DNA of 64,000 nucleotides from Antedon mediterranea (Eukaryota; Animalia; Echinodermata), in the NCBI RefSeq assembly GCF_964355755.1, contig NC_092672.1, forward strand, positions 3,534,001 through 3,598,000, written 5' to 3'. Shown here one piece after another: positions 1 through 35,329 of this stretch. The position numbers were made by a program, and so were the translations under genes. A model generated the notes under the pieces. It made no database searches, was not told where the DNA came from, and saw only the letters and a list, made by a program, of their open reading frames with translations. Position 1 is the first letter of the stretch. Each line of letters begins with the position of its first letter.

Positions 1-2110
1 TGTTGGGTTCTGTTTGATAAAAAGCTAATTAACCACGGTACAATTTCAGGTCTACAACCAAGTGTTACTAATTTAGAAACTGCTATTGTGTGGTCAACAC
101 AATCGAATGCTTTACTAAAGTCAGTTAAAACTAACTGACCAACAGATTTGGGAATGTTACTACCTTCATAGAACACATTTAGTAGATCAACCAAATTATG
201 GGTTGTAGAAAAGTGTTTACGGCAACCATATTGGTTGTTATCAAGATTTTTCTCGATATCTGTTAAGAGCCATTTTTTAATGAAGCCCTCAGCTACCTTA
301 GCTAGGATACATGTAAGTGAGATTGGTCGAAATTTGTCAACCCTAGTACAACCATTTTCTTTGGGAACCGGAGTAACAATAGCATCCTTCCACATAGTTG
401 GGACATGACCCTCACTGAGGGAGGCATTTAAGATATTAGTCATAGGGATGCTTAGTTCACATGCAAAATCTCTTATTAATCTGTTAGGCACATTATCAGG
501 GCCCGGGGACTTATTTACTTTAACTTTTCTTAATTGATTGTACATTTCCCATTCTTTTACATTAGGGGGTTTATTAGCAGGTAAATACGTAGGGAGCTTA
601 CATAAATCAATACTAGGTCTGCTTTGGGAAGTTATAGCAAAATGGTTGTTTACAAAATTACTTATACCATGATAGTCATCCTGCGGAATATCCTCAACAC
701 TAATAAGTGGTTGGGGTTTAGTTTTATTAGCTAACATCTGCACGTCTTGGTGCCATTTATGGGGATTAGTGACTTTTAAGTTTAATAAACGTTCATTGTA
801 AAAGTTCATTTTGTCTTTCTTGATCACTTTTTGTACCTTATTCCTATAGAATTTCCATTCCAGTGATTTACCATGATTAGTAAAAGCGTGTTGACGTTTC
901 ATTATAAGATCCTTTGCTTGTTGTGAAATCCATGGCTTATCAGTTGGATGTATCTTAATGGATTTAACCGGGAAGAAAGTGTTCATAGCAGAAGTCAATG
1001 ACAAATAAAATGATTGCGTTTTCTGTTCAGTAGTACTCGCGTTAATAACCTCGTTCCAGTCATGGGTAGTTATCCAACGGCCAAATTCTTCAACACTTTT
1101 CGCTTTCATTGGTCTGATTACACGCTTTTCGATTTTGTTGCTATTCGTCCTTGTAGTTGCTGACAACAGAACACAATTATGATCGCTAGCACCCATCGGC
1201 GACACAATTCGGGGATCGCAATAATACTGCTTCAGATTGGTGGCTATAATATCTAGTATTGCATCCCCTCGCGTTGGTTCTTTCACAATTTGTTTTAGGT
1301 TATGTGCACGGCATAGCGGGGCTAGGTCAGTTCTGTTCAGGTCCCCCATAATAATGAAGCCAGCGTCTGGGTGTTTAAGTTTAAGACTGTCAAGAGATTT
1401 AATAATATGATCCAAAAGTAGTTGTTGGTCAGAAGAATTAGGTGGAATATATATTCCACAAACTATAATAGAGGATACAGCTCTAGGAAGCCTCTTCGGT
1501 CTTATAAAAACCCAAACACACTCTAGCTCTTCGGGTACAACTATTTCATGTATTCTTCGCGACAGAAATTCAGAATTAACATATACAGCCACTCCACCAC
1601 CCTTCCTATGCGTTCTATGATAGGTATAAATATTGAAGTTGTTAATCATCAGTGCATCATCTGTTATTTGCGGTGTTTGCCAAGTCTCTGTGACAACTGC
1701 TAAATCAATACAATTTTGAAGTAGAAGGGTTTCTAGTTCGTCCACACGGTAGATTAACGAACGCGGGTTAGTCAGGAAAATCGATGGGAGTGATGGCTGT
1801 AACATTGTATAGTTGACTTTACGAAGTGAATTAGGGAATAAACTACTTAGAAAACGCCCTCGCTTGTTGTCTATATAATCAGAAGCACGATAATAGTGGG
1901 AATTTTTCTACGTATATTTACACCACCTCTTCTACCTCTACTTTTACGATAGATGCCAAGATTATTCAGCTTAGTGAGGGTTCCCTTAGGTAGGTATTGC
2001 ACCTTATTACGACGTTTAATGAAGGCTGATCCAATATAAAATAGCTCATGTCTGGAATAACGAGTCATTTTGGCTTGCTCAGTGGCTTGTGTATCATTCC
2101 AAGATAAGAA
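1..2110 (-). mobile_element. Non-LTR retrotransposon (CR1 group: CR1/L2/Crack/Rex-Babar-like), APE endonuclease plus start of the RT domain; runs off the left window edge
   Basis: Minus-strand frame from ATG 1805 reads LPSIFLTNPRSL..VVTETW..GGGVAVYV..IMGDLN..PTRGDAILD..SDHNCV (APE motifs), then KSPGPD..PVPK..FRPISLT..QYG..LTDFSKAFDCVDH (RT N-terminal motifs). Upstream ORF 1871-2209 has the YSR..RGRRGG motif typical of CR1-group ORF2 N-termini. The ORF track lists no stop-terminated ORF in 1-1805, consistent with an open frame leaving the window. Confidence 0.9.
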
Positions 2111-5100
2111 ATAAACAATAAAACTATTGTTTAGTAAATTAATTATTGTAGGAATTGGTGGATTTTTAAATCTTTCGGTTCTCTGTTTGTATTGTTGATA
2201 TTTGATCATGACATTGTACGAAGAATACTACGGATAGTCAGTAAGATTATCACGCCTTACTTTTAGCAAAGGTAAATTAAAAAATTCTAACCCTTTGTTT
2301 TTCTTTTCAAGATGGATTATTGCTAATGCATAAAAGGTTATTCAATGTTTATTTTATTTTTTTACCGTAAAAGGTAAATTTACCATGATTTAATTTAATA
2401 AAACATAATTATCTATATCAAGGCATTCTCAATATACGAACATAGGTTGAAAACCAAATAACAATAAACATAAGTTTTACAGTTTTCCGTCACCTGTTAT
2501 TATATTGCATATTAATTATAATTAATATCATCAAACAAACCGTAACATTTTCAAAGAGCAAAACAATAAATACGTTCTGTGGCGGGCGGATAACCAAACT
2601 CGTCCCAAGTGACGAGTTTCAATCTAGATTGCTACAAAGTGGCAAATATAAAATGTTTTAGATCAATAGAATGGTCATTGCGAACTGGGATATAGATACA
2701 ACTTTACACGACTGCAATCTGCGCTAAAAAAGCTTGAACCTGAAGGAAAGCAATTGATTTTGAAGGATGAAAAAAAATAACATTCTCAAAACCATTCACA
2801 GAATGAATCGTGCCCTAAAATGTAAGTAGTCGCATATCAGGAAAAAAATAGTATACCATCTGTCCGTAATTGAATTTAAAAGCAGGTTTAGGAAATCTTA
2901 AAAAATGGAAAATGTAATGGTTTCATCAAAAGATAGTTTAAGTGGTATACGTCCAATGGATGGACGCTATCTATTGTATGAAGACGATGACCTCTCTCCG
3001 AGACCAGACTGTAAAGAAGATTTTTAAAATTACCGAACAAAGCATTCGGCCGTCATAAAGAAATGTGTCAAAATGGTTTATACGTCCAATGGATGGATGC
3101 CATCTACTGAATGATGATGACCTCTTCGAGACCAGATTGTAAAGATTATGGTTGAAATTACCGAACATAGCATTGGTATAAAAAACCAACAAAATGCCAT
3201 TCAAGCAGTTGAATTACGTCCATTTATTTAAAAAGTATAGATATATGTAATCTGCCTTGGGTATCAGAAAAGGCAAGAAATAGATACATTTTGAAACAAC
3301 ATTTTTATAATTGGTATTTAAGATTAGTAGAAGATAAGAGAAGGCTTCAATTTCAATTAGATTAACAATTAGACAAATAAATTTATGTTTCAAACTTTGT
3401 TTGTACAAGACGTTCATTGTTAAAGTTACATTTTTTAAGTTTCAAAATCTATGCAATTGTAAATGAACAGATTTGTTTTTAAATAAGAACATTGCAAACT
3501 ATTATATCTTTTAAGAGTTGTATTAAAGATATAAAAAAACAAAATGTCTTTCTCAGTGGCCTACTGTATCAATGGTTGAATATCCTTTTGATTATGCGAA
3601 AAAAAAAATTGGTAGTTTCTTTAATACAAAACTCGATAACACCCGCCTTAGACAGCGGTGAACTACTGAATTGGTTAATAATACCTTTAATCAAATCTAA
3701 TAATAATTTTAATTACTAATTTTTTACTCCAAGACACAACGCGGTGAACTGCTAAATTTTAAATGATGATGATGAGAATAGTTTCTCGAAACATGTCACA
3801 TTTTAAGGCAGTTTGCCTATTCATTAAATGAGTATATGCAGCATTTGATCTTAAATCCTCTTCAGTTTCACTTTTAAATAAATAATTAGCAATGTTTTAA
3901 TCAAAATATACTTTGAGATTTGTAATGAGAAACAAAATTCCACTACCTTTTCTAACATGCAACAGTGCATCAAAGTTCCTCAAAAATGTTTTTTATACTA
4001 AAGCTCCTTTTTGACAGTTTTCCAATCTGTTTGCTTTGTATTTAAATGTCCAAACTGAATCCAAATTTCCAATGTTCTTATTACTGTACACCATATATAC
4101 AGTCTTGAACAGCTCTTCTCAGGTTATAGTAAATTGGATTGCATAATGTTCAACATCAAAACCATGTTCTTGTTTACAGAAATAATTCACCAGGCAATTG
4201 CTCACAGGTCAAAATAGAAAATCATTCTATTTATTTTGTGTTGCTTGTATAATAATGTTCCTATTCTTTTCTCCCCCATTTTCCATTGTTTAATCTGAAT
4301 CAAAATGTTCTTTTTACAACATGTTCCATGTTATTTTTAACATTCCAAAACAAAACAGTTCCTCTTGCACAACAGTCAAGTAAGGCACAGCCTCTTCTCA
4401 TCAAAACATCAGAGAATAGTCAGCAATATCTTCTTGTTGACGAAATAAATTTCTTTTTGTGGACGTTAATTCTCGTATGTTGTAGTTAAGGTCACTGAAG
4501 TGTGCAGTATCTTGAAAATATCCAAGTTCATACAGTCAAATTAATGTCCGACTTATTGAACAGGAAAATAAGTTGCATTTTAAAGTCTACGATATTGATG
4601 AATTGTTTTCTGCTTGAGTTTGGTCCAAAAAAAAAATGATTTGGTAGTTTGATAAGCCTCTCTTTACAAATCTCTGTATTTGTATTGGAAACCTGCTAAT
4701 CGAGACACGATTCCAATAAAATGGTACATTTTATTGCTGACTATCTCATATTGCTTAATTTTATGGAACGCGATGAACTGCTGAAATTGTTCACAAATAC
4801 AGTAGCGTAGGTGGATTTTGATTATTTTGTTAATAATAAATTTAATTTGAAATTACAATTATTTTATTTACACAGTATTAGTAGCTGGCCTACAGTTTGT
4901 ACTGTAATATTAAGAAACAAAGTTTGAAACTTTATTGTCAATTGAAATAAATACAATAATGCATAAACGAGATGAAAGACTGAAGGCACTTGACTTGAGA
5001 AAGTTGTTGTAAGGTTGTCAATACAAAAAAATAGCTGACGAAGTAGGATAAAGATTGAAAATACTTTTAGACAGCACCAATATGGTGATAAGGGTACCAA

Positions 5101-7219: not shown

Positions 7220-8385
7220 GTAGTAAATAACTATCTATTAACATTATAGGGGGTGTAATATATTACGGACTGTCTATAATATTAGGTACCCCTGTGACAG
7301 ATGGCACCCCTTATAATATAACAGTAAATAACTATCTATTAACATTATAGTGGGTGTAATATATTACGGACTGTCTAGAATATTAGGTACCGTACCCCGT
7401 GACAGATGGCACCCCCTATAATATAACAGGATAATAACTATCTATTATAGGGGGTGCAATATATTATGGACTGTCTAGAATATTAGGTACTCCCGTGACA
7501 GATTGCATCCCCTATAATATAACAGTAAATAACTATCTATTATAGGGGGTGCAATATATTACGGACTGTCTAGAATATTAGGTACCCCCGTGACAGATTG
7601 CACCCCCTATAATATAACAGGATAATAACTATCTATTATAGGGGGTGCAATATATTACGGACTGTCTAGAATATTAGGTACCCCCGTGACAGATTGCACC
7701 TCTATAATATAACAGTAAATAATTATCTATTATAGGGGGTGCAATATATTACGGACTGTCTAGAATATTAGGTACCCCGTGACAGATTGCACCTCTATAA
7801 TATAACAGTAAATAATTATCTATTATAGGGGGTGCAATATATTACGGACTGTCTAGAATATTAGTTACTCCCGTGACAGATGGCACCCCCTATAATGTCA
7901 CAGGATAATAACTATATATTATAGGGAGTGCAATATATTACGGACTGTCTAGAATATTAGTTACTCCCGTGACAGATTGCACCCCCTATGATATAACAGG
8001 ATAATAACTATCTATTATAGGGGGTGCAATATTATTACGGACTGTCTAGAATATTAGGTACCCCGTGACGGATTGCACCCCCTATAATATAACAGTAAAT
8101 AACTATCTATTAGGGGGTGCAATATATTATGGACTGTTTAGAATATTAGGTACCCCGTGACAGATGGCACCCCCTATAATGTAACAGGATAATAATTATC
8201 TATTATAGGGGGTGCAATATATTATGGACTGTTTAGAGGTACCCCCGTGACAGATAGCACCCCCCATAATATAACAGGATAGTAACTATCTATTATAGGG
8301 GGTGCAATATATTATGGACTGTTTAGAGGTACCCCGTGACAGATTGCACCCCCTATAATATAACAGGATAATAACTATCTATTTT
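7220..8385. repeat. Minisatellite, ~95-101 bp unit, ~12 copies; each unit carries an internal inverted repeat
   Basis: TTA(C/T)GGACTGT recurs at 7263, 7364, 7464, 7559 and onward. Units contain ATTATAGGGGGTGCAAT and its reverse complement ATTGCACCCCCTATAAT. Confidence 0.95.
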
Positions 8386-10295
8386 GACCCATCTGGCATC
8401 TAGCATTTATGCTAGGCACAATTTTAGAAAATCTAGCATATTCTGGGAGTGTTGACAAAGTGCGAGGTATGCGAGGTACGCCAAATACTAATTGTGCGAG
8501 GCATCATTATATCATTTCGAAAAGTGCGAGGAATGCATAGCATATAGTTTACAATTTCAAAAAGGTGCGAGGCATATCTTAACGTGCTATTATGCTACAT
8601 TATAGGCCTAATAATCAATTATTCTCAATAGTCTAAATCTAATCTAAATAGATTCGTGTATGTTGTTTATTTTTTATGTAACGATTGTTTATTTTTGTCA
8701 TTCAAGTCATATCGTGTCAAATTTTACTTTTACAAAAGTGACCAAACTGTTCAAAAGTTGTGCATCCGTATGCGTCATATTTAAAAAATTTGAACAACTC
8801 TTCAACTTTCGATAAACCGTAATTGTTATAGCGACACTCATATAATGACTGCCATGCTTGTTGGCATTTCGAGCGTGTTCACTTTACAATTAATGTAACA
8901 TGTCTCTCGAACATAGCAGAGTGAAAATAATATATTGTCACACCCCCGCGCCTCGATCCGGTAGACCTAAGATGGAAAATCTCTCTTTGCTATTTAACAG
9001 GTAGCGGAACGATTCTGCCCTGAGAGGATTCGGCCTTGTGGCGATTCCCCTCCTATAGCACGTGGTTTCAGCAGCAACGCACATACTTCTCTCTGAGCGG
9101 CGTGCCAAAGATATTTTTGACATTTCATTCTCTAGAAAGTCAACACGTGTACCTCTCTCGCAAATAAAGTGAACAGCGATGGCCAAGACAAGTTCAATAA
9201 CTCATGGCGGTGAATAAAAGGTAGCCTACCGTAACTGATATGCCGGTCAAATAACATGCCGCAAAGAAAAAAATTGCAAGAGAATTCTGAAGCGCGTGTG
9301 AAAAAGACTTACGTCGGCCGACAATCGTAATACTAGGCCTAAAATTAAACTTTAGCTAATATGCTTAGCCCTAAACCTAGAGGCCTATGTAGAAAATAAT
9401 TTAATCAATTTTGATATAATAATAATTGATGTAATATTAATAATGATACACTATTCCTGTTTTAGTAGGCTAGGTATATTACGAATGATTTTTATTTATT
9501 GTTGTCCATGTACGTACTAATAAACCTGGCGCTAGTTTCCTTCGCTTATATTTTGACTCCAAATTTGATAACTTTATCGTGTGAATACCACACCTTACTG
9601 GCGTGTTTCTCGCACACTGTTCGCGAATTTCACTTATTCAATGTTCAATATTTTTCTTTCTATTGAGCACCAAAAAGAGCAACAATAATAGAGGACTCAT
9701 TGGAATGCGTCAATTTTTCATGTATTGGTGAAAAATTAATTTCAATATATTTTTTAATTTGTCAATAAAAATGCTGTAATATGTTACTGCTGATACGTTG
9801 TTCGGTTTTCAAAGAATAATAATCGATCCTAAATATTATCCTAGATCCTAGATATTATGATGAATTGATCTATTTTATTCTTTAAAAGGTTAATGAAATC
9901 GTGTACAGTATCAACAGTAACATTTTTCCTTAATGACAGTGACAAAATCTATTAAAATTAGGCCTATACGTGATTTTCAACAAATAATGCGTTAAATATA
10001 TGGATTCCACTCATTGAGTTAGCCCTCTAATTAATTTTGCACTTTGTTGGCGTTCTATAGAAACCAAAAAATTTAACGGATTTATTGTTACTTTTATGTG
10101 ATTTTTCTTCATTAAAGTAGGCCTACTAATTCTAAGGTGTGGTATTCAGGATAAAGTTGGTTAACAAATTTTGAGTTAAAATACAAGGCAGGTGCAAAAA
10201 GGAACTAGCGGGCCTAGGCTACTTCAATTTCGGTGATTTCCTGCCTCTCAATTTTGGGAAATTATAAAAATAATGATGCCTTGCATACTCTGATG

Positions 10296-12385
10296 GGGTA
10301 GTAACAAAGTGCGAGGCAGCGAGGCACGCGAGGCAGGGAAGGCATGCGAGGCAGGGAAGGCATGCGAGGCAAGTCAGAAATTTATGCGAGGCATCGTTTT
10401 ACCATCATCAAAAAATGCGAGGCATCATTTTATCATTTCTCAAAATTGCAAGGCAGGTTATCACCGAAATTGAAGTAGCCTAGGCCCGCTAGCTAGGCTA
10501 GTTTCCTTTTGCACCTGCCTTGTATTTTAACCAACTTTATCCTGAATACCACAACTTAGAATTAGTAGGCCTACTTTAATGAAGAAAAATCACATAAAAG
10601 TAACAATAAATCCATTAAATTGGTGATTTTACAGACGTTGTTTTTCTCGCATTTCGCACACTCAATGTTCAATATTTTGGTTTCTATGGAACGCCAAAAG
10701 AGCAAAATTAATTAGAGGGCTAAAAACTCTGTGGAATCCATTTATATTTAACGCATTATTTGGTGAAAATCAAGTACAATTTCAGTAGATTTTGTCACTG
10801 TCAGTAAGGAAAAATGTTACTGTTGATAATGTACACGGTTTCGTTAACCTTTTAAAGAATAAAATAGAAAAATTCATCATAATATCCTTAGTAGGATGTC
10901 CTAGGTCTAGACTAGGTAGTGATGTTGATTTAGGATCGATTATTATTCTTTGAAAACAGAACAGTATCAGCAGTAACATATTACAGCATTTTTATTGACA
11001 AATTAACAAATATATTGAAATAAAACGTGTTTTTCACCAATAAATGCATGACAAATTGACGCATCCCACTGAGTTTTAGTCCTCTATTATCGTTGCTCTT
11101 CTGGCGCTCCATAGAAACAAAAATATTGAACATTGAATAAGTGAAATTCGCGAACAGTGTGCGAGAAACACGCCTGTAAAATCATTAATTTAAGGATTTA
11201 TTTGTTACTTTTTATGTGATTCTTCCATTAAAGTACTCATGAGGTATACTTCTAAGGTGTGGTATTCACACGATAAAGTTAGTTATCAAATTTGGAGTAA
11301 AAATACAAGCGAAGGAAACTAGCCTAACCTAGGTTTATTAGTACGTACATGGACAACAATAAATAAAAATCGTTCGTAATATACATAGCTTACTAAAACA
11401 GGAATAGTGTATCATTATTAAATATTACACCAATTATTATTATATCAAAATTGATTAAATTATTTTCTACATAGGCCTCTTATCTAGGTTAGGGCTAAGC
11501 ATATTATTAGCTAAAGTTTAATTTTAGGCCTAGTATTACAATTGTCGGACGTAAGTCTTTTTTCACACGCGCTCCAGAATTCTGTCGCAATATTTTTCTT
11601 TGCGGCATGCTATTGGATCGCCATATCAGTTACCTTTTATTCACCGCCAGTTATTGAACTTGTCCTGGCAATCGCTGTTCACCTTATTTGCGAGAGAGGT
11701 ACACGTGTTGTTCCTAGAGAATGGAATGTCAAAAATGTCTTTGGCACGCCGCTTAGAGAGAAATCTGTGCGTTGCTGCTGAAACCACGTGCTATAGAAGG
11801 GGAATGCGCCACAATCCTCTGAGCTGAGGGCTGAATCATTCCGCTACCTGCTAAATAGTAAAGAGGGATTTTCCATCTCTCGGGTCTACCGGATCTAGGC
11901 GCAGGGGTGTGACAAAATATTATTATCACTCTGCTATGTTCGAGAGACATGTGAGTGAAACGCTCGAAATGCCAACAAACATTGCAGTCATTTGATGAGT
12001 GTGTCGCTATAACAATTATTGTTTATCGAAAGTTGAAGACTGTCGTTCAGATTTTTGAACCGTAGTTTGGGCACTTTTGTAAAAGTAAAATTTGACACGA
12101 TATATGACTTGAATGAAAAAACAATCGTTACATAAAAATAAACAACATGATGAGTGTATACACGAATCTATTTAGATACGCTTGTATCGATTGATTATTA
12201 GGCCTATAATATAGCATAATAGCACGTTAAGATATGCCTCGCACCTTTTTGAAATTGTAAACTATATGCCCCGCATGCCTCGCACTTTTGGAAATGATAA
12301 AATGATGCCTCGCACAAATATTTGGCATGCTACGCATGCCTCGCTTGCCTCGCGTGCCTCGCTGCCTCGCACTTTGTCAACACTC
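10296..12385 (-). mobile_element. Non-autonomous TIR DNA transposon (GRG termini, possibly Sola2-like) inserted in the opposite orientation
   Basis: Left end GGGTAGTAACAAAGTGCGAGGCAGCGAGGCACGCGAGGCA; reverse complement of the right end GAGTGTTGACAAAGTGCGAGGCAGCGAGGCACGCGAGGCA. Subterminal GCGAGGCA repeats are present. No clear TSD was found, so the superfamily is tentative. Confidence 0.7.
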
Positions 12386-12414
12386 TATTTGATGATGGTA
12401 AAACGATGCCTCAC

Positions 12415-12907
12415 TGTAACTGCAGCCTACTTATAGGAGGCCCTCTAAAGTTCAAATAGATAAAAAGTGATAAGAGAGAATAAGACATTTTTTATGACAT
12501 AAAGTTTAGAGATAATCATTGTTCAAAGTATCTTTACCATAGGCTCCAATAAGGCTACAAGGTATTTACACATGGTTATTCATGTGATTGTAATTATAAC
12601 TTATGACTTGTATTTTTAATTAGTTGAGTTTTACTTCATTGCTGAAAGCTAGCCCTCTAGGCTTTAGGGTATCATGTTCCCCAGCCCCATGAGTCAGACC
12701 TGTGCTTGTCTGCCTGTACGATGATGATATGATTAGGCCTACATTGTAATGCTAATCTTTGTTTTATTATAGTTTTCATGGTGTTTATTCAAGTTGCTAA
12801 TGATATTGTAATTTGTAGAGATACAAGAGATAGTTCAGAGAATAAATCAAGGAACATCAGTATCTACAAAATTTGTAATTTATTTATGATGGACGCCTAC
12901 GGTAACA
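12415..12907 (+). repeat. 5' LTR of the BEL/Pao element
   Basis: TGTAACTGCAGCC...GCCTACGGTAACA; direct repeat of 15930-16422; AATAAA at 12841. Confidence 0.95.
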
Positions 12908-15900
12908 GTGAAAACTTAGCTGATGAAAACTCAATGAATCTAAGAGAACAGAGTGAGAGACGCCCTACAGCTAAGGCCCTGTCAATTAGCATTGCTACTG
13001 AAGTAAAACTGTTGAGTCAAACTCAGAGAAAGGCTCAAGAAGCATCAAGTGAACTAGAAGATGTTCCAAGCGACGAATTTGAGATACAAACTGCATTATG
13101 CAAAGCTAAAGCTTCATTAAAGGAATATAGTGATGCTTGGTGCGTATTGAATAAATTGTATGCACAAGATAGAGATGGTATTCATCGCGAAGATCACCTG
13201 GAGAATGAGAACATATATCTCACCATTGCCAACTCCATCCAAGCTAGTATAACAAGTGTTATGGATAAGGCACATGCATTAGCCCTTGAGTGTCAAGCCT
13301 CAAAATCTGCAGCATCAAAGAGTTCATGTCGATCTATTGTTAGCATTAAAGCTCAAGCCGTGGCGAATGTTGCTGCAGCCAACAAAACTGCTCAATTTGT
13401 TGAAAAAATGGCTAAACAGAAAGCAGACCTTACAGCAAAGGAAGCTGAAATGGAAATTAAGAAAGCAGAAGCAAGGCTTGAAGAAATAAGGCGGGAAGCA
13501 CAGCAAAGAACAGAACATGCCAAAGCTGAAGCAGAGTTCAAAGTTTTAGAGGCTAAACAAGCTGCAGCTGTAGAGAATGCACGAGTTGATGCAATTCAAC
13601 AGGAAATTCAGAACGGATATCGAGAAATTATGACCACACCACACCAAACCTCAAATGATCATGCACTAAGGTTTCGCAACCTAACCAAACCTCAACCTCT
13701 AATGACACAGACACAAGCAACAACAGCCCAACCGACAATGCCTCAAAATCAATCTAGCAGTACCACAGACTTAAACGCTTTAGCAGAAGCCTTTTCTTCA
13801 GCCTTCAGTATGAACCGCATACCAGCACCAGAGCCACCAATATTCGATGGCGATCCTCTTAAGTACTATGATTGGAACGCATCCTTTAGATGTTTAATCG
13901 AAAATAAAGGAATTTCTAAGGCAGACAGAATTCACTACCTTAAGAGATACATAGGAGGCCCAGCAAAGGAAGTTGTCAGTGGATACTTTCTGCTACAAGG
14001 TGAACATGCTTATGAAAACGCTAAAGCAGTTTTAGAAAAAAGATATGGAAATCCATTTATAGTTTCCGAAGCATTTAGAGACAAATTAGACAGCTGGCCA
14101 AGGATTCAAGCAAGAGATTACAATGGCCTTAGGCGACTCTCTGACTTTCTGAACCAATGCAACATAGCAATGAAGGAAATGAAAGGCTTGGAAGTTCTTA
14201 ATGACAGCAGAGAAAACCGGAAAATTCTTCAAAAATTACCAGATTGGTTAGTGAATAGATGGCGAAGAAACGCAGTGAGCGCTATGCAAATCAAGGGTAG
14301 TTATCCAACATTCAATGACCTTTCCACATTTTTGACGACCGAAGCTGAAATTGTTTGCGATCCTGTTACCTTAATACCAGAAAATGAAACAAAATTCACA
14401 GAAAAAAGTTCAAGATATCGAAACCAATCTCAAACGCTAGCCACCAGTATCAGTGGAATGCCATCATGCTTCATGTGTAAAATGAATAACCATCACCTAA
14501 GTGACTGCAGAGCGTTTGCCAGAAAACCTGAAACCGAAAAACAGCAATACATCAAGCAAAATGGTCTATGCTTCAGCTGCTTACAACATGGCCATGTGTC
14601 AAGGAACTGTAACCAGAAAAGTATTTGTAAAATTTGCCAAAGGAGACATCCAACAAGTCTCCATGTAAAGGAGAGAGATTCAGCTCACGAGATGACTGAA
14701 GCAAAAATGCAGGTTATCAAGTTACAAGAGACTGTCACTAAGAAAGAGACACTATTGCAGGATTTAGCCACAAAGTATGCTAAGAAAAATGATGAGTTAG
14801 CAGAAATTAAAGAAGAAAGAGATCTGGCTAAAAGGAAATCAGATGACGAACTTGCTTATATGAACAAACAATTTCAACAGGCTGTAGCGTCTAATCCACC
14901 TAACATTAGTGAACAATTGGCTTTACTACATGCAGAACTTGATGAGACTTATGGACAACAAATTGTTATGATTAAGTCACAGCTGCAGGAAAGACACCAG
15001 AATGAAATGCAAGAATTGCAAAAGAAATGTGAAGAAGATGCTGAAACTAATAACAAAATTAGAGATGCATTAGAACAGAATTTAAAGGAACTCCAAGACC
15101 AATTAGATGAGAAAGAGATGGACTTAGAGGCTTGTCAGAACATCCAAAAAGACTTCGAAGATCAAGTTGCACTTCTTAATAATCACAACAAGGAACTAAC
15201 AGAGAAAATGGAGAAAGAAGAAGATGTAACTTTGCAACTTCATCGAGAGCTTGATGAAGCTAACCAAGAAATGCAGAAGAAAACTTCAGAGTTAGATGAA
15301 AGAGTTACCCAGTTTATTGATGAAAAAGAAAGATTGGAAAATGAATATCGGAAAAGGTTTGAAGATGAAAGTGCCCATCAAGAAGATATCCATCGCATTG
15401 TATTAAACCAACAGCGTTCTGAAGTTGTTGCTGAAATTGATCGCAAAATGAAACCCAAAGTAGAAGAAGTTGAAGACCATTTCAAGGTTCAATTCTGTAC
15501 TGAAAAATCGGACAAAGAGAACGAATTTGTTCAAGAATTCAAGAACATTCGACAGCAGTTAGCAGAATCTCATGCAGAAGAGATTGAAGCTGTTACAAAG
15601 AAAATCACAGATGAATTAACTGAAAAGCATAACATTATGCTAGAGGAGGAAACGAAAAAGCTCTTCAAAGGAATAAATGATATATCTGAAGAGAAGGTAT
15701 CGACGGAGCAGAATCGGAATAAAGATTGGATTGAAAATCAAGAAAAAGAATTAAAGGAACAAATTGTAAATATAAAAGTCGAGCTTCAACAAGTGAACGA
15801 AAAGAATTCAAAAATACAAACTGTTAACTTATTCTTTATATTGTTAATATACTTCCAGTTTTGCATTACTTGTGTTTATTCTGGCAAGGGTGGGAGTTAA
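12778..15900 (+). CDS. BEL/Pao Gag (DUF1759-like capsid plus three Zn knuckles) fused in frame to an AKAP9/pericentrin-like coiled-coil segment; true start probably ATG 12934
   Basis: PEPPIFDGDPLKYYDW..F..LIE..R.HYLKRY..A...LE.RYG is the BEL Gag core. The knuckles are CFMCKMNNHHLSDC, CFSCLQHGHVSRNC and CKICQRRHPTSLH. About 410 aa of E/K/Q-rich heptads follow, including LHAELDETYGQQIVMIKSQL. No protease, RT, RNase H or integrase motifs are present. Confidence 0.9.
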   Translation: MVFIQVANDIVICRDTRDSSENKSRNISIYKICNLFMMDAYGNSENLADENSMNLREQSERRPTAKALSISIATEVKLLSQTQRKAQEASSELEDVPSDEFEIQTALCKAKASLKEYSDAWCVLNKLYAQDRDGIHREDHLENENIYLTIANSIQASITSVMDKAHALALECQASKSAASKSSCRSIVSIKAQAVANVAAANKTAQFVEKMAKQKADLTAKEAEMEIKKAEARLEEIRREAQQRTEHAKAEAEFKVLEAKQAAAVENARVDAIQQEIQNGYREIMTTPHQTSNDHALRFRNLTKPQPLMTQTQATTAQPTMPQNQSSSTTDLNALAEAFSSAFSMNRIPAPEPPIFDGDPLKYYDWNASFRCLIENKGISKADRIHYLKRYIGGPAKEVVSGYFLLQGEHAYENAKAVLEKRYGNPFIVSEAFRDKLDSWPRIQARDYNGLRRLSDFLNQCNIAMKEMKGLEVLNDSRENRKILQKLPDWLVNRWRRNAVSAMQIKGSYPTFNDLSTFLTTEAEIVCDPVTLIPENETKFTEKSSRYRNQSQTLATSISGMPSCFMCKMNNHHLSDCRAFARKPETEKQQYIKQNGLCFSCLQHGHVSRNCNQKSICKICQRRHPTSLHVKERDSAHEMTEAKMQVIKLQETVTKKETLLQDLATKYAKKNDELAEIKEERDLAKRKSDDELAYMNKQFQQAVASNPPNISEQLALLHAELDETYGQQIVMIKSQLQERHQNEMQELQKKCEEDAETNNKIRDALEQNLKELQDQLDEKEMDLEACQNIQKDFEDQVALLNNHNKELTEKMEKEEDVTLQLHRELDEANQEMQKKTSELDERVTQFIDEKERLENEYRKRFEDESAHQEDIHRIVLNQQRSEVVAEIDRKMKPKVEEVEDHFKVQFCTEKSDKENEFVQEFKNIRQQLAESHAEEIEAVTKKITDELTEKHNIMLEEETKKLFKGINDISEEKVSTEQNRNKDWIENQEKELKEQIVNIKVELQQVNEKNSKIQTVNLFFILLIYFQFCITCVYSGKGGS

Positions 15901-15929
15901 GGTTAAATCATAGATGATTTGGGTGGGAG

Positions 15930-16422
15930 TATAACTGCAGCCTACTTATAGGAGGCCCTCTAAAGTTCAAATAGATAAAAAGTGATAAGAGAGAATAAGA
16001 CATTTTTTATGACATAAAGTTTAGAGATAATCATTGTTCAAAGTATCTTTACCATAGGCTCCAATAAGGCTACAAGGTATTTACACATGGTTATTCATGT
16101 GATTGTAATTATAACTTATGACTTGTATTTTTAATTAGTTGAGTTTTACTTCATTGCTGAAAGCTAGCCCTCTAGGCTTTAGGGTATCATGTTCCCCAGC
16201 CCCATGAGTCAGACCTGTGCTTGTCTGCCTGTACGATGATGATATGATTAGGCCTACATTGTAATGCTAATCTTTGTTTTATTATAGTTTTCACGGTGTT
16301 TATTCAAGTTGCTAATGATACTGTAATTTGTAGAGATACAAGAGATAGTTCAGAGAATAAATAAAGGAACATCAGTATCTACAAAATTTGTAATTTATTT
16401 ATGATGGACGCCTACGGAAACA
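15930..16422 (+). repeat. 3' LTR of the BEL/Pao element
   Basis: TATAACTGCAGCC...GCCTACGGAAACA followed by the TSD CTCAC. Confidence 0.95.
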
Positions 16423-16962
16423 CTCACATACATTTCTGACTTGCCTTCCCAGCCTCGCGTGCCTCAATCAATGTATGATCAATGTATTTGGACCTTCTCA
16501 TAATGCATTGGTGCATGTGGAATAAGGTAGTCAGGATGATGTGAGGAATTGTTTATTGATGATTTGTGAATTCTTATATTTATATAAAGTACAAGTACAA
16601 GTACAAGTTCTGAAAAGAACTGACGTGAGTTTCTTACCGTTTCGATCAATATTATGCTTTGATTGTCCCGTCCATAGATATCATGATCGTCCTTAGGAGT
16701 GAGGAGTAGTGTTTTCTGATTCTCCTGAGGACTATCAAAGTATAAATTTATTTGATTGAAACGTCGAGAAACTTAACAATTCATTCATTTTAGAACTATA
16801 TATATACGCGTGGTGTATGTACTGCAAACTTTATATAATATTTGATTTCGTCATGAAAACCTTTAAACAACTCTCATATTCTTCCATTTTCTTTCTTTGT
16901 CAAGTCGGCATTCATCATTTTATACCTTTTACATATTTGATATTGTTTTTATGCTAAAACAG

Positions 16963-19900
16963 GCATCTTTGCACCGTCCTCATGATGACTCAGCATTATC
17001 GCATCTTTACACCGTCCTCATGATGACTCAGCATTATCGCATCTTTGCACCATCCTCATGATGACTCAGCATTATCGCATCTTTGCACCGTCCTCATGAT
17101 GACTCAGGATTATCACATCTTTGCACCGTCCTCATGATGACTCAGCATTATCGCATCTTTACACCATCCTCATGATGACTCAGCATTATCACATCTTTGC
17201 ACCGTCATCATGATGACTCAGCATTATCGCATCTTTGTACCGTCCTCATGATGACTCAGCATTATCGCCTCTTTGCACCGTCCTCATGATGACTCAGCAT
17301 TATCACATCTTTGCACCGTCCTCATGATGACTCAGCATTATCACATCTCTGCACCGTCCTCATGATGACTCAGCATTATCACATCTTTGCACCGTCCTCA
17401 TGATGACTCAGCCATATCGCATCTTTGCACCGTCCTCATGATGACTCAGCATTATCGCATCTTTGCACCGTCCTCATGATGACTCAGCATTATCACATCT
17501 TTGCACCGTCCTCATGATGACTCAGCATTATCGCATCTTTGTACCGTCCTCATGATGACTCAGCATTATCGCATCTTTGCACCGTCCTCATGATGACTCA
17601 GCATTATCACATCTTTGCACCGTCCTCATGATGACTCAGCATTATCACATCTTTGCACCGTCCTCATGATGACTCAGCATTATCACATCTTTGCACCGTC
17701 CTCATGATGACTCAGCATTATCACATCTTTACCGTCCTCATATGATGACTCAGCATTATCACATCTTTGAACCGTCCTCATGATGACTCAGCATTATCAC
17801 ATCTTTGCACCGTCCTCATGATGACTCAGCATTATCACATCTTTGCACCGTCCTCATGATGACTCAGCATTATCACATCTTTGCACCGTCCTCATGATGA
17901 CTCAGCATTATCGCATCTTTGCACCGTCCTCATGATGACTCAGCATTATCGCATATTTGCATCGTCCTCATGATGACTCAGCATTATCACATCTTTGTAC
18001 CGTCCTCGTGATGACTCAGCATTATCACATCTTTGTACCGTCCTCGTGATGACTCAGCATTATCACATCTTTGCACCGTCCTCATGATGACTCAGCATTA
18101 TCGCATATTTGCATCGTCCTCATGATGACTCAGCATTATCACATCTTTGCACCGTCCTCATGATGACTCAGCATTATCACATCTTTGCACCGTCCTCATG
18201 ATGACTCAGCATTATCACATCTTTGCACCGTCCTCATGATGACTCAGCATTATCACATCTTTGCAACGTCCTCATGATGACTCAGCATTATCTCATCTTT
18301 GCACCGTCCTCATGATGACTCAGCATTATCATATCTTTGCACCGTCCTCATGATGACTCAGCATTATTGCATCTTTGCACCGTCCTCCTATGATGACTCA
18401 GCATTATCACATCTTTGTACCGTCCTCATGATGACTCAGCATTATCACATCTTTGCACCGTCCTCATATGATGACTCAGCATTATCACATCTTTGCACCG
18501 TCCTCATGATGACTCAGCATTATCACATCTTTGCACCGTCCTCATGATGACTCAGCATTATCACATCTTTACCGTCCTCATGATGACTCAGCATTATCGC
18601 ATCTTTGCACCGTCCTCATGATGACTCAGCATTATCACATCTTTGCACCGTCCTCATGATGACTCAGCATTATCACATCTTTACCGTCCTCATATGATGA
18701 CTCAGCATTATCACATCTTTGTACCGTCCTCATGATGACTCAGCATTATCACATCTTTGCAACGTCCTCATGATGACTCAGCATTATCGCATATTTGTAC
18801 CGTCCTCATGATGACTCAGCATTATCGCATCTTTACACCGTCCTCATGATGACTCAGCATTATCACATCTTTGTACCGTCCTCATGATGACTCAGCATTA
18901 TCGCATCTTTGCACCGTCCTCATATGATGACTCAGCATTATCGCATCTTTGCACCTTCCTCATGATGACTCAGCATTATCACATCTTTGCACCGTCCTCA
19001 TATGATGACTCAGCATTATCACATCTTTGCACCGTCCTCATGATGACTCAGCATTATCACATCTTTGCACCGTCCTCATGATGACTCAGCATTATCACAT
19101 CTTTTAACCGTCCTCATGATGACTCACCATTATTGCATCTTTTCACCGTCCTCATGATGACTCAGCATTATCACATCTTTGCACCGTCCTCATGATGACT
19201 CAGCATTATCACATCTTTACCGTCCTCATATGATGACTCAGCATTATCACATCTTTGTACCGTCCTCGTGATGACTCAGCATTATCACATCTTTGCACCG
19301 TCCTCATGATGACTCAGCATTATCGCATATTTGCATCGTCCTCATGATGACTCAGCATTATCACATCTTTGCACCGTCCTCATGATGACTCAGCATTATC
19401 ACATCTTTGCACCGTCCTCATGATGACTCAGCATTATCACATCTTTGCACCGTCCTCATGATGACTCAGCATTATCACATCTTTGCACCTTCCTCATGAT
19501 GACTCAGCATTATCACATCTTTGCAACGTCCTCATGATGACTCAGCATTATCACATCTTTGCACCGTCCTCATGATGACTCAGCATTATCACATCTTTGC
19601 ACCGTCCTCATGATGACTCAGCATTATCACATCTTGGCAACGTCCTCATGATGACTCAGCATTATCACATCTTTGCACCGTCCTCATGATGACTCAGCAT
19701 TATCACATCTTTGCACCGTCCTCATGATGACTCAGCATTATCGCATCTTTGCACCGTCCTCATGATGACTCAGCATTATCGCATATTTGTACCGTCCTCA
19801 TGATGACTCAGCATTATCGCATCTTTACACCGTCCTCATGATGACTCAGCATTATCACATCTTTGTACCGTCCTCATGATGACTCAGCATTATCGCATCT

Positions 19901-21432
19901 TTGCACCGTCCTCATGATGACTCGGCATTATCACATCTTTACCGTCCTCATGATGACTCAGCATTATCGCATCTTTGCACCGTCCTCATGATGACTCAGC
20001 ATTATCACATCTTTGCACCGTCCTCATGATGACTCAGCATTATCACATCTTTACCGTCCTCATATGATGACTCAGCATTATCACATCTTTGTACCGTCCT
20101 CATGATGACTCAGCATTATCACATCTTTGCACCGTCCTCATGATGACTCAGCATTATCACATCTTTGCACCGTCCTCATGATGACTCAGCATTATCACAT
20201 CTTTGCACCGTTCCTCATGTTGACTCAGCATTATCACATCTTTGCACCGTCCTCATGATGACTCAGCATTATCACATCTTTGCACCGTCCTCATGATGAC
20301 TCAGCATTATCGCATCTTTGCACCGTCCTCATGATGACTCAGCATTATCGCATCTTTGCACAGTCCTCATGATGACTCAGCATTATCGCATCTTTGCACC
20401 GTCCTCATATGATGACTCAGCATTATCGCATCTTTGCACCGTCCTCATGATGACTCAGCATTATCGCATCTTTGCACCGTCCTCATGATGACTCAGCATT
20501 ATCGCATCTTTGCACCGTCCTCATGATGACTCAGCATTATCGCATCTTTGCACCGTCCTCGTGATGACTCAGCATTATCACATCTTTGCACCGTCCTCAT
20601 GATGACTCAGCATTATCACATCTTTGCACCGTCCTCATGATGACTCAGCATTATCACATATTTGCACCGTCCTCATGATGACACAGCATCATATCTTTGT
20701 ACCATCCGCGTGATGACTCAGCATTATCACATCTTTGCACCGTCCTCATGATGACACAGCATCATATCTTTGTACCGTCCTCGTGATGACTCAGCATTAT
20801 CGCATCTTTGCACCGTCCTCATGATGACTCAGCATTATCACATCTTTGCACCGTCTTCATGATGACTCAGCATTATCACATCTTTGTACCGTCCTCATGA
20901 TGATTCAGCATTATCACATCTTTACACCGTCCTCATGATGACTCAGCATTATCACATCTTTGCACCGTCCTCATGATGACTCAGCATTATCACATCTTTG
21001 CACCGTCCTCATGATGACTCAGCATTATCACATCTTTACACCGTCCTCAGGATGACTCAGCATTATCACATCTTTACACCGTCCTCATGATGACTCAGCA
21101 TTATCACATCTTTGCACCGTCCTCATATGATGACTCAGCAGTATCACATCTTTGTACCGTACTCATGATGACTCAGCATTATCACATCTTTGCACCGTCC
21201 TCATGATGACTCAGCATTATCACATCTTTGCAACTTCCTCATGATGACTCAGCATTATCGCATCTTTGTACCGTCCTCATGATGACTCAGCATTATCACA
21301 TCTTTGCACCGTCCTCATGATGACTCAGCATTATCACATCTTTGCAACGTCCTCATGATGACTCAGCATTATCGCATCTTTACACCGTCCTCATGATGAC
21401 TCAGCATTATCGCATCTTTGCACCGTCCTCAT
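16963..21432. repeat. 38-bp tandem satellite, ~117 copies; nearly every unit contains ATGACTCAGCA
   Basis: Unit ATCTTTGCACCGTCCTCATGATGACTCAGCATTATC(A/G)C. Period of 38 checked at 17581/17619. Units abut with no unique spacers. Confidence 0.98.
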
Positions 21433-26523: not shown

Positions 26524-27005
26524 GGGTGTTTCGAAACTAGAGACCCGAGACCAGAGACTAGAGACCCGAGACCCTATACGAAAAGGGAGACCCCACTATA
26601 CGAAAAGGGAGACCCCACTATACAACAATGGAGATCCAAATATACGAAAAGGGAGACCCAAATATACAAAAAAGGGGAAACCCAAATATACGAAAAGGGA
26701 GACCCAAATATACGAAAAGGAAGACCCAAATATACGAAAAGGAAGACCCCAAATATACGAAAAGGAAGACCCCAAATATACGAAAAGGAAGACCCAAATA
26801 TACGAAAAGGGAGACCCAAATATACGAAAAGGAAGACCCCAAATATACGAAAAGGAAGACCCCAAATATACGAAAAGGAAGACCCAAATATACGAAAAGG
26901 AAGACCCAAATATACGAAAAGGAAGACCCCAAATATACGAAAAGGAAGACCCCAAATATACGAAAAGGAAGACCCCAAATATACGAAAAGGGAGACCCAA
27001 ATGTT
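26524..27005. repeat. 22-23 bp minisatellite (GACCC(C)AAATATACGAAAAGG(G/A)A), ~19 copies, at the end of an inserted element starting GGGTGTTTCGAAACT
   Basis: Tandem units run 26570-27001. Homology with copy B stops abruptly at CTGGCAC (26523 vs 53225). Confidence 0.85.
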
Positions 27006-28073: not shown

Positions 28074-28952
28074 CAGCACAGTGTTCAGGTTTAAACTATT
28101 GTTAACACCAAGTGTTATTACAAGTCAGCACAGTGTTCAGGTTTAAACTATTGTTAACACCAAGTGTTATTACAAGTCTGCACAGTGTTCAGGTTTAAAC
28201 TATTGTTAACACCAAGTGTTATTACAAGTCAGCACAGTGTTCAGGTTTAAACTATTGTTAACACCAAGTGTTATTACAAGTCAGCACAGTGTTCAGGTTT
28301 AAACTATTGTTAACACCAAGTGTTATTACAAGTCAGCACAGTGTTCAGGTTTAAACTATTGTTAACACCAAGTGTTATTACAAGTCAGCACAGTGTTCAG
28401 GTTTAAACTATTGTTAACAACAAGTGTTATTACAAGTCAGCACAGTGTTCAGGTTTAAACTATTGTTAACACCAAGTGTTATTACAAGTCAGCACAGTGT
28501 TCAGGTTTAAACTATTTTTAACACCAAGTGTTATTACAAGTCAGCACAGTGTTCAGGTTTAAACTATTGTTAACACCAAGTGTTATTACAAGTCAGCACA
28601 GTGTTCAGGTTTAAACTATTGTTAACACCAAGTGTTATTACAAGTCAACACAGTGTTCAGGTTTAAACTATTGTTAACACCAAGTGTTGTTACAAGTCAG
28701 CACAGTGTTCAGGTTTAAACTATTGTTAACACCAAGTGTTATTACAAGTCAGCACAGTGTTCAGGTTTAAACTATTGTTAACAACAAGTGTTATTACAAG
28801 TCAGCACAGTGTTCAGGTTTAAACTATTGTTAACACCAAGTGTTATTACAAGTCAGCACAGTGTTCAGGTTTAAACTATTGTTAACATCAAGTGTTATTA
28901 CAAGTCAGCACAGTGTTCAGGTTTAAACTATTGTTAACACCAAGTGTTATTA
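28074..28952. repeat. 52-bp tandem repeat, ~17 copies
   Basis: Unit CAGCACAGTGTTCAGGTTTAAACTATTGTTAACACCAAGTGTTATTACAAGT; period checked at 28081/28133. Confidence 0.97.
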
Positions 28953-29891
28953 CTCTTACAACATAAAGAAAATCAAAGACTGTACACAAATATATCTTAT
29001 GTAAAACTTTTAATATAATACAAATAGTGATAACAAAAATCCATAACTTATCAACTTTAAATGTATTTTATACAGAATTATATTTCACTATTTCTACATC
29101 ATATAGAAAAAATATTTCAACATCAATATATTTAAAAACACACCAATGAAATATATAATGTCTTCATTGTTTGATTTTTGTCATTTTTAGTTTTACAAAT
29201 TCTACTACAACTTTGTTCTGCTGTTGTTACTGTGCAAAGACATCTCATAATGTGTTTATTTGTTAATATAATTTCTAATTACGTTTTCATTTAATAAAAC
29301 TGCTTTTGATAACAAATTACGTTTCATCATTATCTTCATGTTATGTTTTGTAGTTTCAAGTTGTACCACTTTACTTTTAGTATTTAACCAGCCAACCTAA
29401 TTATAAAGAGTTGTATTAATTACATTTAAAATAATATTATCACATAATTACTTTAAAACACGCACAACCAAATCTATACAATATATCAAGTAAAAAACAT
29501 TGCATTATTATAAAAGAATAATTTTCATTAAATATGTCAGCACAGCTTATAAAGATTATAATGAATAAGAAACAAACATTCTTGTTTATCTGCATGCTAC
29601 AGCTGTTAATAATGATTACTTCCGTTGCTAGTGTGCCGCGTGCGGAAGTACGCGCGCGCGCTCCGTCGATGAAGGTAAGTATGTCAAAATAAATTTTATG
29701 TTTTAGATTATCATATTGATTTATTCTACTATACGATTTTTATATAAAAGGTCAATTTTTTATATTGAATACAAATTTAATGTTTGAAATGCAATTATTT
29801 GCGATATTAAAAATTAACACCTGCTTGCTGCGAGATTTAAAAATGTGTTTGTTATATAGTAGAAGTAACATACGTTATCAGTGAAAACTAA

Positions 29892-31837
29892 CTAATGATA
29901 AAAATTAATATTTCTCTTTGAACACTCTTCAGCCACGTGTTCGATGACTTTAGCTGATAGATTGCAATCCCTCATGTAAAGCCTCCACAGCTTAGGAGAC
30001 GTAATGAGAAATGAAGACAATGAATTAACATCAATGTTGTCAAGGTTGTTACGAGAGATATCCAGATATTCTAATTCTAATTGAACTTGATTGAGAGAAC
30101 ATTCTGATACAAAGTCATTAAATACATCACGTGATAGATTCCGAATCCAAACATATTCACATTTATCTACAATGCCTAAAATGTGTGCAATAACTCTTCC
30201 CTTTCGCTCCAATGTCATCTTACTAAAAAAGTCACCGATACTATAATCATAATATTGCATACAATACAATTGCATAATTAGACGTATGAAATGCCCATCA
30301 CATTGCACACCTGGACTAATGTAATCAATAAACATTCTTATGGAGGTAGATATATTATTTATTTCTAAATCTTTGCTTGTCATGTGATTAATTAATTCAT
30401 TAACCACAGCATCTTCGTGTTCTTTTTTAACAAAGTTAAAATTTCTCGGCAGATAGCGATATGTTGACAAACTATTTGTAACCCAGTGCTTTAGGAAACC
30501 GCCGGCTTTATCACCAAGGAAACCAATTGCAAACTCTCTCGCTCTGTATAAATGCCTCCTCTCTCCTATAACCTCCCACTCATCATCATCCAATGGTGTA
30601 AGTAATGTTCGTACATCTGAGCACCACTCATTCTCCATACCTTCACTTTCACATAATTTGCACAAGTAAAATCCCACCAATGACTCTACTATCAACTTGT
30701 GAGGAGGCATAAAAATAATTTCAAAATTCGATTTTAAAATCGGTGCTACTTCATAAACAAATCCAAGTTTTACGGACATGTCAACTAAATCTTTATTCGA
30801 ATGTTTATCATTCAAATCTTTCATGTTTATTGAAAGTCGATTTACTTTCAAGCTATCATACATACATTTTCCCAACAAAATCATAGCATTTACAAACTTT
30901 GCTGGTGTGTCTTCAAATTTAGAAAGCTTTGCGAATTGTTCTTGTTTGTTGAACTGATTCAAAATACTTCGAAATATTTCTTTAAAAAGTTCACCTTTAT
31001 CTGTAGGAAGGCTTTGACTGTCTTCCCACAGCAAACAGATTGAAAAAAGCAGCATTGGATTTTTGCACATTGCATACGCTTCAGGATGTTTTTTCTCAGC
31101 CCAATAAGTGTCAATATCCAATTCGTTTCGAAGGGATTTTCCCAATTCTAGTTTTCCAAAATGTTTGTCAATGTACTTTCCTATGCTCTCGTTATTAAAT
31201 CCCCTAACTCTTACATGTACGTTACTCTCTTTTACAAATTCGTCTATGTTTTCTGATCGTGAAGTAAGTATCACAGCACTGTTTTCTAAGTTGTTCTTTT
31301 TGAACAGACTTATTACGCTTTGATTATTAAATCTCAATTCGTCTAATCCGTCTAAGAAAAATACCAATTTATCGTCATGGGTTATTAGAAAATCTTGAAT
31401 TAACTCTGAATTTCGTGGAAGTTTTGTGTGCCTGCTAAATTCTTTCATATCAGTTTGCTTTACAATTAGATCAATGATGTCATCATCTTTGTCTAAATCC
31501 CGTACACTTAAAAGAAATACAATTTTACCTTTAAATGATTTCATTAATTGAGTAGCCGTAGCCCAGTTGTATGACAAATGCCTTAATATGGAAGTTTTAC
31601 CTATCCCACCCTCGCCATCAATAAGAGCTCTACATCCAGGTGTGAGTACATCAACCACATCTGGTAATGTTGCTGGTTTGTAGCCTTCATTCTGGTCACC
31701 TTCTTTCAGTAGTTCGATATCGGTAAACATCTGTGAAATGTCAACTTTGTATCTACCACGCATTGTTTCTGGTGTAAATTTACTGGCCTGGAAACACAAT
31801 TTCTTTTGTCTTTGAAGCAGATATTCTTTAATTTTTT
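29892..31837 (-). CDS. NLR gene A, last exon: NACHT NTPase, winged-helix/HD2 region and 2-3 LRRs (spliced gene 35142-29892, ~882 aa)
   Basis: Walker A GEGGIGKT, Walker B FFLDGLDE, sensor-1 ILTSR, VRGF, NPMLL and PHKLIVE motifs. LRRs LEYLDISRNNL and LWRLYMRDCNL. The AG acceptor at 31839-31838 gives a phase-1 in-frame join. Confidence 0.92.
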
Positions 31838-31917
31838 CTGATGAGAAAAAAAATAAGAAAATATGCCAAGAAAGATATTTGATTTAAGTTAATTTTAATT
31901 AATAAAGGCCTACAATT

Positions 31918-35142: not shown

Positions 35143-35329
35143 TTTGATTCTGTAAAGAATAATAATAATAAATTTAATTTTGTCGAATTTTTCTTATTGA
35201 TTTTAGCAACTTTGACAGAAATATTGATTAAGTAAATAGTAAAGCAAAACATACATATTATTAGTAGACAAAGAAAGATAAAAACATAAACAATTAAGTC
35301 GGTGTTTCTCACTTACAAAATAGAAACAA

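Follow-up and report, generated by a model that had tools for sequence, protein, structure and literature searches.

How does a retrotransposon come to carry a piece of a host scaffold protein in the place of its own enzymes, and does that piece do anything for its carrier? Both questions are raised by an element at positions 12415-16422 of a 64,000-nucleotide stretch of DNA from the echinoderm Antedon mediterranea (NCBI RefSeq assembly GCF_964355755.1, contig NC_092672.1, positions 3,534,001 to 3,598,000 of the forward strand), which we call the window and by which all positions are counted. The element is bounded by paired long terminal repeats (LTRs) with TG...CA outer ends, and a single open reading frame (ORF) joins the Gag of a BEL/Pao retrotransposon to what is almost certainly, on sequence similarity, host-derived coding sequence of an AKAP9/pericentrin-like gene. 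Such a fusion had been proposed in a preliminary description of the locus. On balance, we favour an account in which a BEL/Pao element without pol captured host sequence in frame by template switching, is copied with the help of a sibling element, and carries the coiled coil as weakly constrained cargo.

Part of the evidence comes from contigs of five runs (X1, X5, X6, X8 and X10) out of 10 public runs with the stretch or part of it. Runs X1 and X5 represent organism A and runs X8 and X10 organism B, while X6 gave scattered low-depth pieces only. None of the 10 is listed as RNA, though X5 may be.

A BEL/Pao derivative without pol

By its sequence the element is a derivative of a BEL/Pao LTR retrotransposon that lacks pol. 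Its Gag contains a DUF1759 domain (Pfam scan, E 1.4e-13, 51.5 bits against a cut-off of 25.4), which we take to be a Gag domain tied to the BEL/Pao superfamily. The three Cys-His knuckles (amino acids (aa) 528-541, 562-575 and 581-593) fit the Pao-type patterns CX2CX3-4HX4C, CX2CX2-4HX4-5C and CX2-4CX3HX4H as these are listed in the relevant section of PMC554778. The Gag appears whole and runs in frame straight into host sequence, as the preliminary description held, although element sequence extends beyond the end then placed near 14665, to 14677 (with overlap to 14693). No protease, reverse transcriptase, RNase H or integrase family was found in the element (Pfam, E<=0.1), and for this reason we regard it as a non-autonomous derivative and not as an autonomous member of BEL/Pao.

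The 493-bp LTRs, their roughly five mismatches, the CTCAC duplication and the uninterrupted ORF, all reported before, hold. The five mismatches fall at LTR positions 2, 365, 392, 434 and 489, a divergence of 1.0%. Five bp is the target-duplication size of BEL/Pao elements, and the duplication is real, given two empty sites: at a paralogous position elsewhere in the window (10365-10415, minus strand) the target 5-mer occurs a single time, with one mismatch, and contigs of organism B connect 12410 directly to 16423. Only one stop-free frame is present (12733-15900), which from its first ATG at 12886 encodes 1,004 aa. The polypurine tract was accepted in part, since the tract 5' of the 3' LTR is G-rich but only partly purine. 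Behind 15837 the window copy lacks 13 nt that are present in the main X1 and X5 contigs, and for this reason its last codons are unlike those of the related RefSeq proteins described below. Within the 64-kb window there is no second copy of the LTR or of the internal part, and an Rfam scan of 8000-20000 gave 0 matches.

The earliest ATGs of the ORF (12886-12907) fall in the final 22 nt of the 5' LTR. Its frame crosses the position expected of a primer-binding site; two RefSeq gene models, P0001 and P0002, likewise begin within the 5' LTR end. One contig of run X1 (depth 120) connects 12559 with 16286, GT..AG being a possible cut and the intervening sequence undefined; this joint may be a mere effect of two LTR copies.

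The captured coiled coil and its donor gene

The part of the ORF behind the Gag had been described as a coiled coil of about 410 aa. A host coiled coil it is, but 380 codons long (aa 598-977), the final 27 residues of the ORF being derived from the element's own 3' end. When the cargo was searched against 1.84 billion representatives, four matches were returned, namely the element itself, a sea-cucumber "putative AKAP9" (E 5.5e-12), a sea-urchin protein and one unnamed protein. A profile of the cargo and one relative led to two proteins of 3,396-5,000 aa, one from a starfish and one from an acorn worm; both are AKAP9-like and have a C-terminal PACT domain. In BLASTP comparisons the cargo aligns with aa 256-539 of the starfish protein at 105 bits (E 1e-27) and with aa 253-416 of the acorn-worm protein at 66.6 bits, a second block lying at aa 590-684 of the latter; a reversed query reached at most 28.9 bits and 60 heptad-block shuffles at most 42.4 bits. 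Searches of proteins of 672-2,000, 1,758-5,000 and 3,396-5,000 aa did not yield the donor protein itself, longer proteins being outside the search.

The donor gene is also seen in host contigs. Each run of organism B has a single contig over 14560-15925, and its match to the window is confined to the cargo: the host sequence follows 14678-15751 with 63 differences and one 18-nt gap and then, after a further 387 nt, continues with 15744-15816. It stays open in the frame of the fusion beyond both junctions, and the host peptide just upstream of the cargo resembles the starfish protein before the aligned start. Organism A carries the same donor gene, represented by X1 record 5 (4,948 bp, depth 12.8) and by low-depth X5 contigs with the letters of organism B. 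Together with the similarity scores, which exceed their controls, these contigs bear out the AKAP9/pericentrin origin suggested in the preliminary description. The fused form was not seen in the contigs of organism B (X8, X10), which have zero cover over 12568-13402 and just before 14678, although a hole in contigs proves nothing alone. Run X8 also contains a related element, represented by diverged pieces of gag and LTR at 14071-14407 and 15982-16422, again with no fusion seen.

On the host contigs the donor piece is colinear and free of introns, and a comparison of exon junctions is for this reason uninformative about an mRNA template. The sea-urchin relative (P0009) has one frame of 1,597 codons on its contig, starting just before the captured start, which is consistent with a single giant donor exon.

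A PDB sequence search gave 0 matches, and in metagenome scans 0 of 36 pattern matches for gag and 0 of 182 for the cargo were confirmed. An ESM Atlas cluster of AKAP9 fragments (rank 2, 0.93) was not used, recognition being low and a second query leading to generic coiled coils headed by CENPF. The AlphaFold model (from four near-identical rows) has a pLDDT (predicted local distance difference test) of 48 and predicts long helices over aa 601-1000 only.

The sibling element and the probable route of capture

What stood between Gag and LTR before the capture is indicated by a sibling element in organism A, an X1 contig of 4,339 bp (depth 46.8) whose ends match 14650-14693 and 15811-15879. In this sibling the same two junctions are separated by about 4.2 kb (1,400 codons), likely pol, against 1.1 kb in the window element, so that the internal region was replaced by host sequence and not interrupted by it; the part replaced was likely, as held earlier, that from protease to integrase. 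In X5 a loose end before 15811 encodes an open nine-residue peptide, in a frame that stops five codons into the shared part, and we take this peptide to resemble the end of a BEL integrase. Loose ends at 15737 and 15772 in X1 were excluded as a chance 36-nt match.

Replacement of internal ORFs by host sequence has been reported for LTR-mediated retrocopies, including Pao and BEL cases; 25 of 29 junctions had overlaps, with a median of 6 bp, and some of the copies went on to spread (Tan et al., 2016; PMC5131818, main text). Given this median, the overlaps of 6 nt and of at most 16 nt found here fit template switching, and we consider it likely, from the sequence at both junctions, that the capture was made by a reverse-transcriptase template switch at short overlaps. 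A host AKAP9-like mRNA would have been packed into a particle, where the reverse transcriptase would have jumped onto it 4-10 codons past the third knuckle and returned near the end of pol; the 18 nt and the 387 nt would then have been lost during later copying. The chimera would supply a Gag of its own, extended by the long helical tail that the low-confidence model predicts, and would borrow its enzymes from the longer sibling, as the non-autonomous TR-GAG elements of plants appear to do (PMC4350172, in part). This sequence of events presupposes that the fusion protein is made and that it packages the RNA which encodes it.

A DNA-level origin, in which a genomic copy of the element gained a host exon by break repair or ectopic recombination and was then retrotransposed, seems to us very improbable. 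It would suit the intron-free donor piece and the long P0009 frame, with its hint of one giant exon, but the insertion on the element's sense strand, the replacement of the internal region and the short overlaps at both ends form the pattern of template switching (PMC5131818, main text). An assembly artefact or an ordinary element-borne extra ORF can practically be dismissed, no supporting point having been found, as contigs lie at both the 5' and the 3' junctions in X1 and X5, the fusion recurs in three RefSeq proteins, and X5 record 10, from another study, spans 12878-14707 across the 5' junction, albeit reaching 30 nt past 14677 and thus falling under the 31-letter bridging bar.

Copies of the chimera and probable movement in trans

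The preliminary description had proposed a search for further chimeric copies, and such copies exist. Compared with proteins, the C-terminal part gave one cluster at E<=0.001 among 7,990 candidates, with three members, all from Antedon mediterranea RefSeq. These proteins (P0001-P0003) are encoded on scaffolds of 31.7, 36.2 and 28.6 Mb, and each is 96% identical to the window protein with an identical junction; one is 125 residues short at its start, and the three have in common a tail unlike that of the window copy. The window protein is itself absent from the protein collection and could represent an allele at one of these loci. Across the four copies the variable columns are spread evenly over the fusion (21 of 597 in Gag, 14 of 380 in the cargo). 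The three models are not a test of selection, because gene models are chosen for open frames.

Differences between element and host were analysed in 40 of 76 rows, at 14721-15401 (723 nt of cargo). Among these rows both hosts agree against the main element contigs at 17 sites, five more sites are private to or polymorphic in the window copy, and 18 were seen in organism B only, in part at positions for which X5 has no separate contig of the host. The cargo thus has at least 22 differences from the hosts in 723 nt, about 3%, whereas the LTRs are 1.0% apart. As the cargo is older than the insertion, and the copy has its own target duplication and no pol, it would have been moved by enzymes supplied in trans; we hold it very likely that this movement, with the frame still open as first suggested, took place after the capture.

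By contig depth the chimera (60-100 in X1, 57-72 in X5) stands above the sibling (47 and 9) and the host gene (13 and 28-35), which suggests that there is more chimera than sibling, with the qualification that contig depth is not copy number and that run types are not recorded.

Several points weigh against the account given so far. That the 4.2 kb of the sibling are pol, and intact, is likely at most. The mRNA template is likewise likely at most, with the donor piece on intron-free host contigs and DNA-level recombination possible. No primer-binding site was recognised by eye after the 5' LTR, and the window has 0 tRNA genes. Dispersal amounts to three proteins on three scaffolds, with a target duplication known for the window copy alone, and the comparison with the host covers little more than half of the rows of differences.

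Possible selection on the captured residues

Two findings speak against a coiled coil that is mere cargo. The 17 shared changes comprise 7 synonymous and 10 non-synonymous ones, a ratio of non-synonymous to synonymous rates (omega) of 0.34-0.53, with P of 0.03-0.15 by the assumed transition bias; and the chance of two in-frame losses and no stop in an estimated 35 substitutions is 0.03-0.05. The weight of this evidence is inflated, as the finding was picked for its open frame, and adjacent changes within one codon were scored singly. Adding the five private or polymorphic changes, all of them non-synonymous, gives an omega of 0.5-0.8 (P 0.11-0.38). At the sites seen in organism B only, omega is 0.19-0.30, and the contrast with the changes of the element is not significant (Fisher P 0.20). 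The case for amino-acid constraint on the cargo is borderline (omega about 0.35-0.55, P 0.03-0.15).

Repeated 8-mers within the cargo are in phase in 40 of 71 pairs (56%), so that in-frame losses are favoured without selection. Most likely, the frame stays open because the RNA gains from being translated to near its end, or through in-phase overlaps and chance, selection on the residues being at most weak; the open frame may also be kept for the stability of the RNA and not for the protein.

Does the coiled coil do anything?

We find it somewhat probable that the captured coiled coil is cargo without a specific job. One possibility, which we think unlikely though worth setting out, is that the coiled coil steers the nascent fusion and its RNA to the Golgi or the microtubule-organising centre and has been kept by selection on the element, with benefits for assembly, for meeting the Pol of the helper or for reaching the germline. 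Its appeal comes from the host proteins. In human AKAP450 the first coiled coil (aa 159-463) binds GM130, dimerises and targets the cis-Golgi (PMC3105543, in part); the Golgi location of AKAP9 mRNA depends on translation (bioRxiv 2020.05.20.106989, in part); and PCNT mRNA reaches centrosomes on polysomes, the N-terminal half of the protein having been proposed to contribute (PMC5976437, in part). Counted on the starfish and acorn-worm proteins, the cargo begins near aa 260; it retains the block that is best conserved, both losses lying beyond it, the shared changes lean synonymous, and chimera contigs are deeper than those of the sibling in both runs (60-100 vs 47; 57-72 vs 9).

By analogy with these proteins, the retrotransposon might use a captured co-translational addressing coiled coil, fused to Gag, to pull its own RNA towards the microtubule-organising centre. 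Such a gag-onc-like capture, selected for the trafficking of the parasite itself, would account for both the open frame and the outnumbering of the helper; we doubt it. The overlap with the human Golgi-binding region is positional only (starfish aa about 260-540 vs human 159-463), the first 260 residues and the PACT domain of the donor were not captured, selection is borderline, and depth is not copy number, non-autonomous elements often outnumbering their helpers in any case (PMC5131818, main text). If the idea were true, a retrotransposon would have gained a host trafficking signal in one step, and the expressed piece could disturb microtubule nucleation at the Golgi, as is the case for human N-terminal fragments (PMC3105543, in part).

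Less probable still is a benefit to, or restriction by, the host, in which the fusion co-assembles with the sibling Gag-Pol and spoils or tethers its particles, or gives rise to small RNAs against AKAP9. The particle version could draw on the long coiled coil and the hydrophobic tail of the fusion, a hydrophobic stretch ending all four copies (best 19-residue hydropathy 2.1-2.4), and LTR retrocopies that silence their parent gene exist, such as Pxyfem (PMC9674220, in part). However, each of the three frames yields a hydrophobic tail (1.68-2.09), which is thus a by-product of T-rich DNA, and the tail varies between copies; moreover, young LTRs, several loci, a depth that depends on the run and the lack of a fused form in the contigs of organism B speak more for a mobile parasite than for a fixed host gene. 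A reading of the hydrophobic C-terminus as a tail anchor was set aside for the same reason, the property being likely incidental.

Known systems and novelty

Neither the mechanism of capture nor the class of element is new, BEL/Pao included (PMC5131818, main text). The LTR-mediated retrocopies of Tan et al. (2016), such as those of Pao BATUMI, Drosophila BEL and mosquito BEL18_AG, resemble our case in the host piece that replaces internal ORFs, in the short overlaps at the switch points, the retention of both LTRs, later non-autonomous spread and often the frame of the parent (PMC5131818, main text). They differ in that the present element joins what appears to be a whole Gag in frame to its cargo, and that this frame has outlasted about 3% divergence and two deletions, while 14 of 21 older retrocopies carried a loss-of-function change (PMC5131818, main text). 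Neither AKAP nor the word 'fusion' occurs in the text sections of that paper or in nine of its supplement files, file 1 lying outside the search.

Similar in another way is maize Bs1, a non-autonomous LTR element with transduced host exons and one to five copies that share switch points (cited in PMC5131818). It is a plant element with three donor genes, one of them out of frame. The ORF of Bs1 may be a gag fusion. The TR-GAG elements are alike in being short (under about 4 kb), without pol, with one Gag ORF and still active, but have Copia/Gypsy Gag and occur in plants, and the abstract of PMC4350172 mentions no captured host domain for them. Pxyfem of Plutella, present in many copies, is part of a gene linked through a short overlap to pieces of LTR gag; it acts, unlike the present element, through silencing RNAs from degenerate W-linked copies and has no open fusion frame (PMC9674220, in part).

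The preliminary description had likened the fusion to those of acute retroviruses. Acute transforming retroviruses encode gag-onc fusions, with host coding sequence in place of pol, and depend on helpers. The comparison is a fair one, although those viruses are infectious, vertebrate and selected by cell growth, whereas this is an invertebrate germline retrotransposon with structural cargo that has no known effect; and mRNA capture and spread by LTR elements, BEL/Pao among them, had already been described (PMC5131818, main text). What looks new is a multicopy fusion of Gag and a scaffold protein, kept open, with donor and sibling in view. No earlier Gag-AKAP9 or crinoid case was found in the open-licence literature by title or start of abstract, subscription journals and Repbase not being covered.

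The case is an unusually complete capture event, since chimera, donor gene, sibling, both switch points and a related organism with no fusion seen are all in public data. This completeness makes it testable whether a captured host domain serves the element, a question that is open for LTR-mediated retrocopies. Such chimeric copies are annotated as host genes in RefSeq.

Feature coordinates and genomic surroundings

Table 1. Parts of the element, its cargo and its target site, in window coordinates.
Feature	Positions	Strand	Details
Left target-site duplication	12410..12414	.	5 bp, CTCAC; present once at empty paralogous site
5' LTR	12415..12907	+	493 bp, TG...CA; single AATAAA at LTR position 427; contains first in-frame ATG (12886)
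BEL/Pao gag	12886..14677	+	N-terminal helical part, DUF1759 (about aa 320-463), triple Cys-His box (aa 528-593)
5' switch zone	14678..14693	+	host match begins 14678; sibling contig matches to 14693; imperfect overlap of at most 16 nt
Captured host coding sequence	14678..15816	+	380 codons (aa 598-977); almost certainly N-terminal coiled coil of AKAP9/pericentrin-like gene; strand and frame of donor
Host-contig support for cargo	14678..15816	+	X8 record 18, X10 record 9, X1 record 5, X5 records 11 and 15
18-nt in-frame loss site	15032..15033	+	relative to host gene of organisms A and B
387-nt (129-codon) in-frame loss site	15744..15751	+	relative to host gene; 8-nt overlap of two aligned pieces
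3' switch zone	15811..15816	+	6 nt common to host gene and sibling element
Element-derived 3' end	15817..15929	+	short hydrophobic ORF tail (stop 15898-15900), then G-rich tract before 3' LTR
3' LTR	15930..16422	+	493 bp; second base is one of five LTR mismatches
Right target-site duplication	16423..16427	.	5 bp, CTCAC

The element is inserted at the right end of a long palindrome of high-depth repeat (8489-12397), which is centred near 10350 and has many inverted arms; these measure 60-130 nt and are for the most part 90-98% complementary. A second palindrome, at 60476-62737, has arms of 530, 145 and 218 nt with 94-98% complementarity. Tandem arrays with units of 38, 59, 96 and 22 nt occupy 16964-21432, 37284-45604, 7243-8383 and 26575-27002, respectively, the 59-nt array comprising about 141 copies with a 97% match.

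On the minus strand, at 29892-31883, 34606-35193 and 56434-58476, lie two NACHT-domain frames (663 and 680 codons) and one death-effector-like frame (below cut-off), likely, from their domains, an immune gene cluster of NOD-like receptor (NLR) type. An identical 52-nt tandem unit occurs at 28074-28953 and 54945-55460, each time about 1 kb away from a NACHT frame, on its low-coordinate side, and suggests a duplicated gene block. A frame of 122 codons on the plus strand (54381-54749) has no Pfam match; we take it to resemble the C-terminal end of a HELLS/LSH-like helicase.

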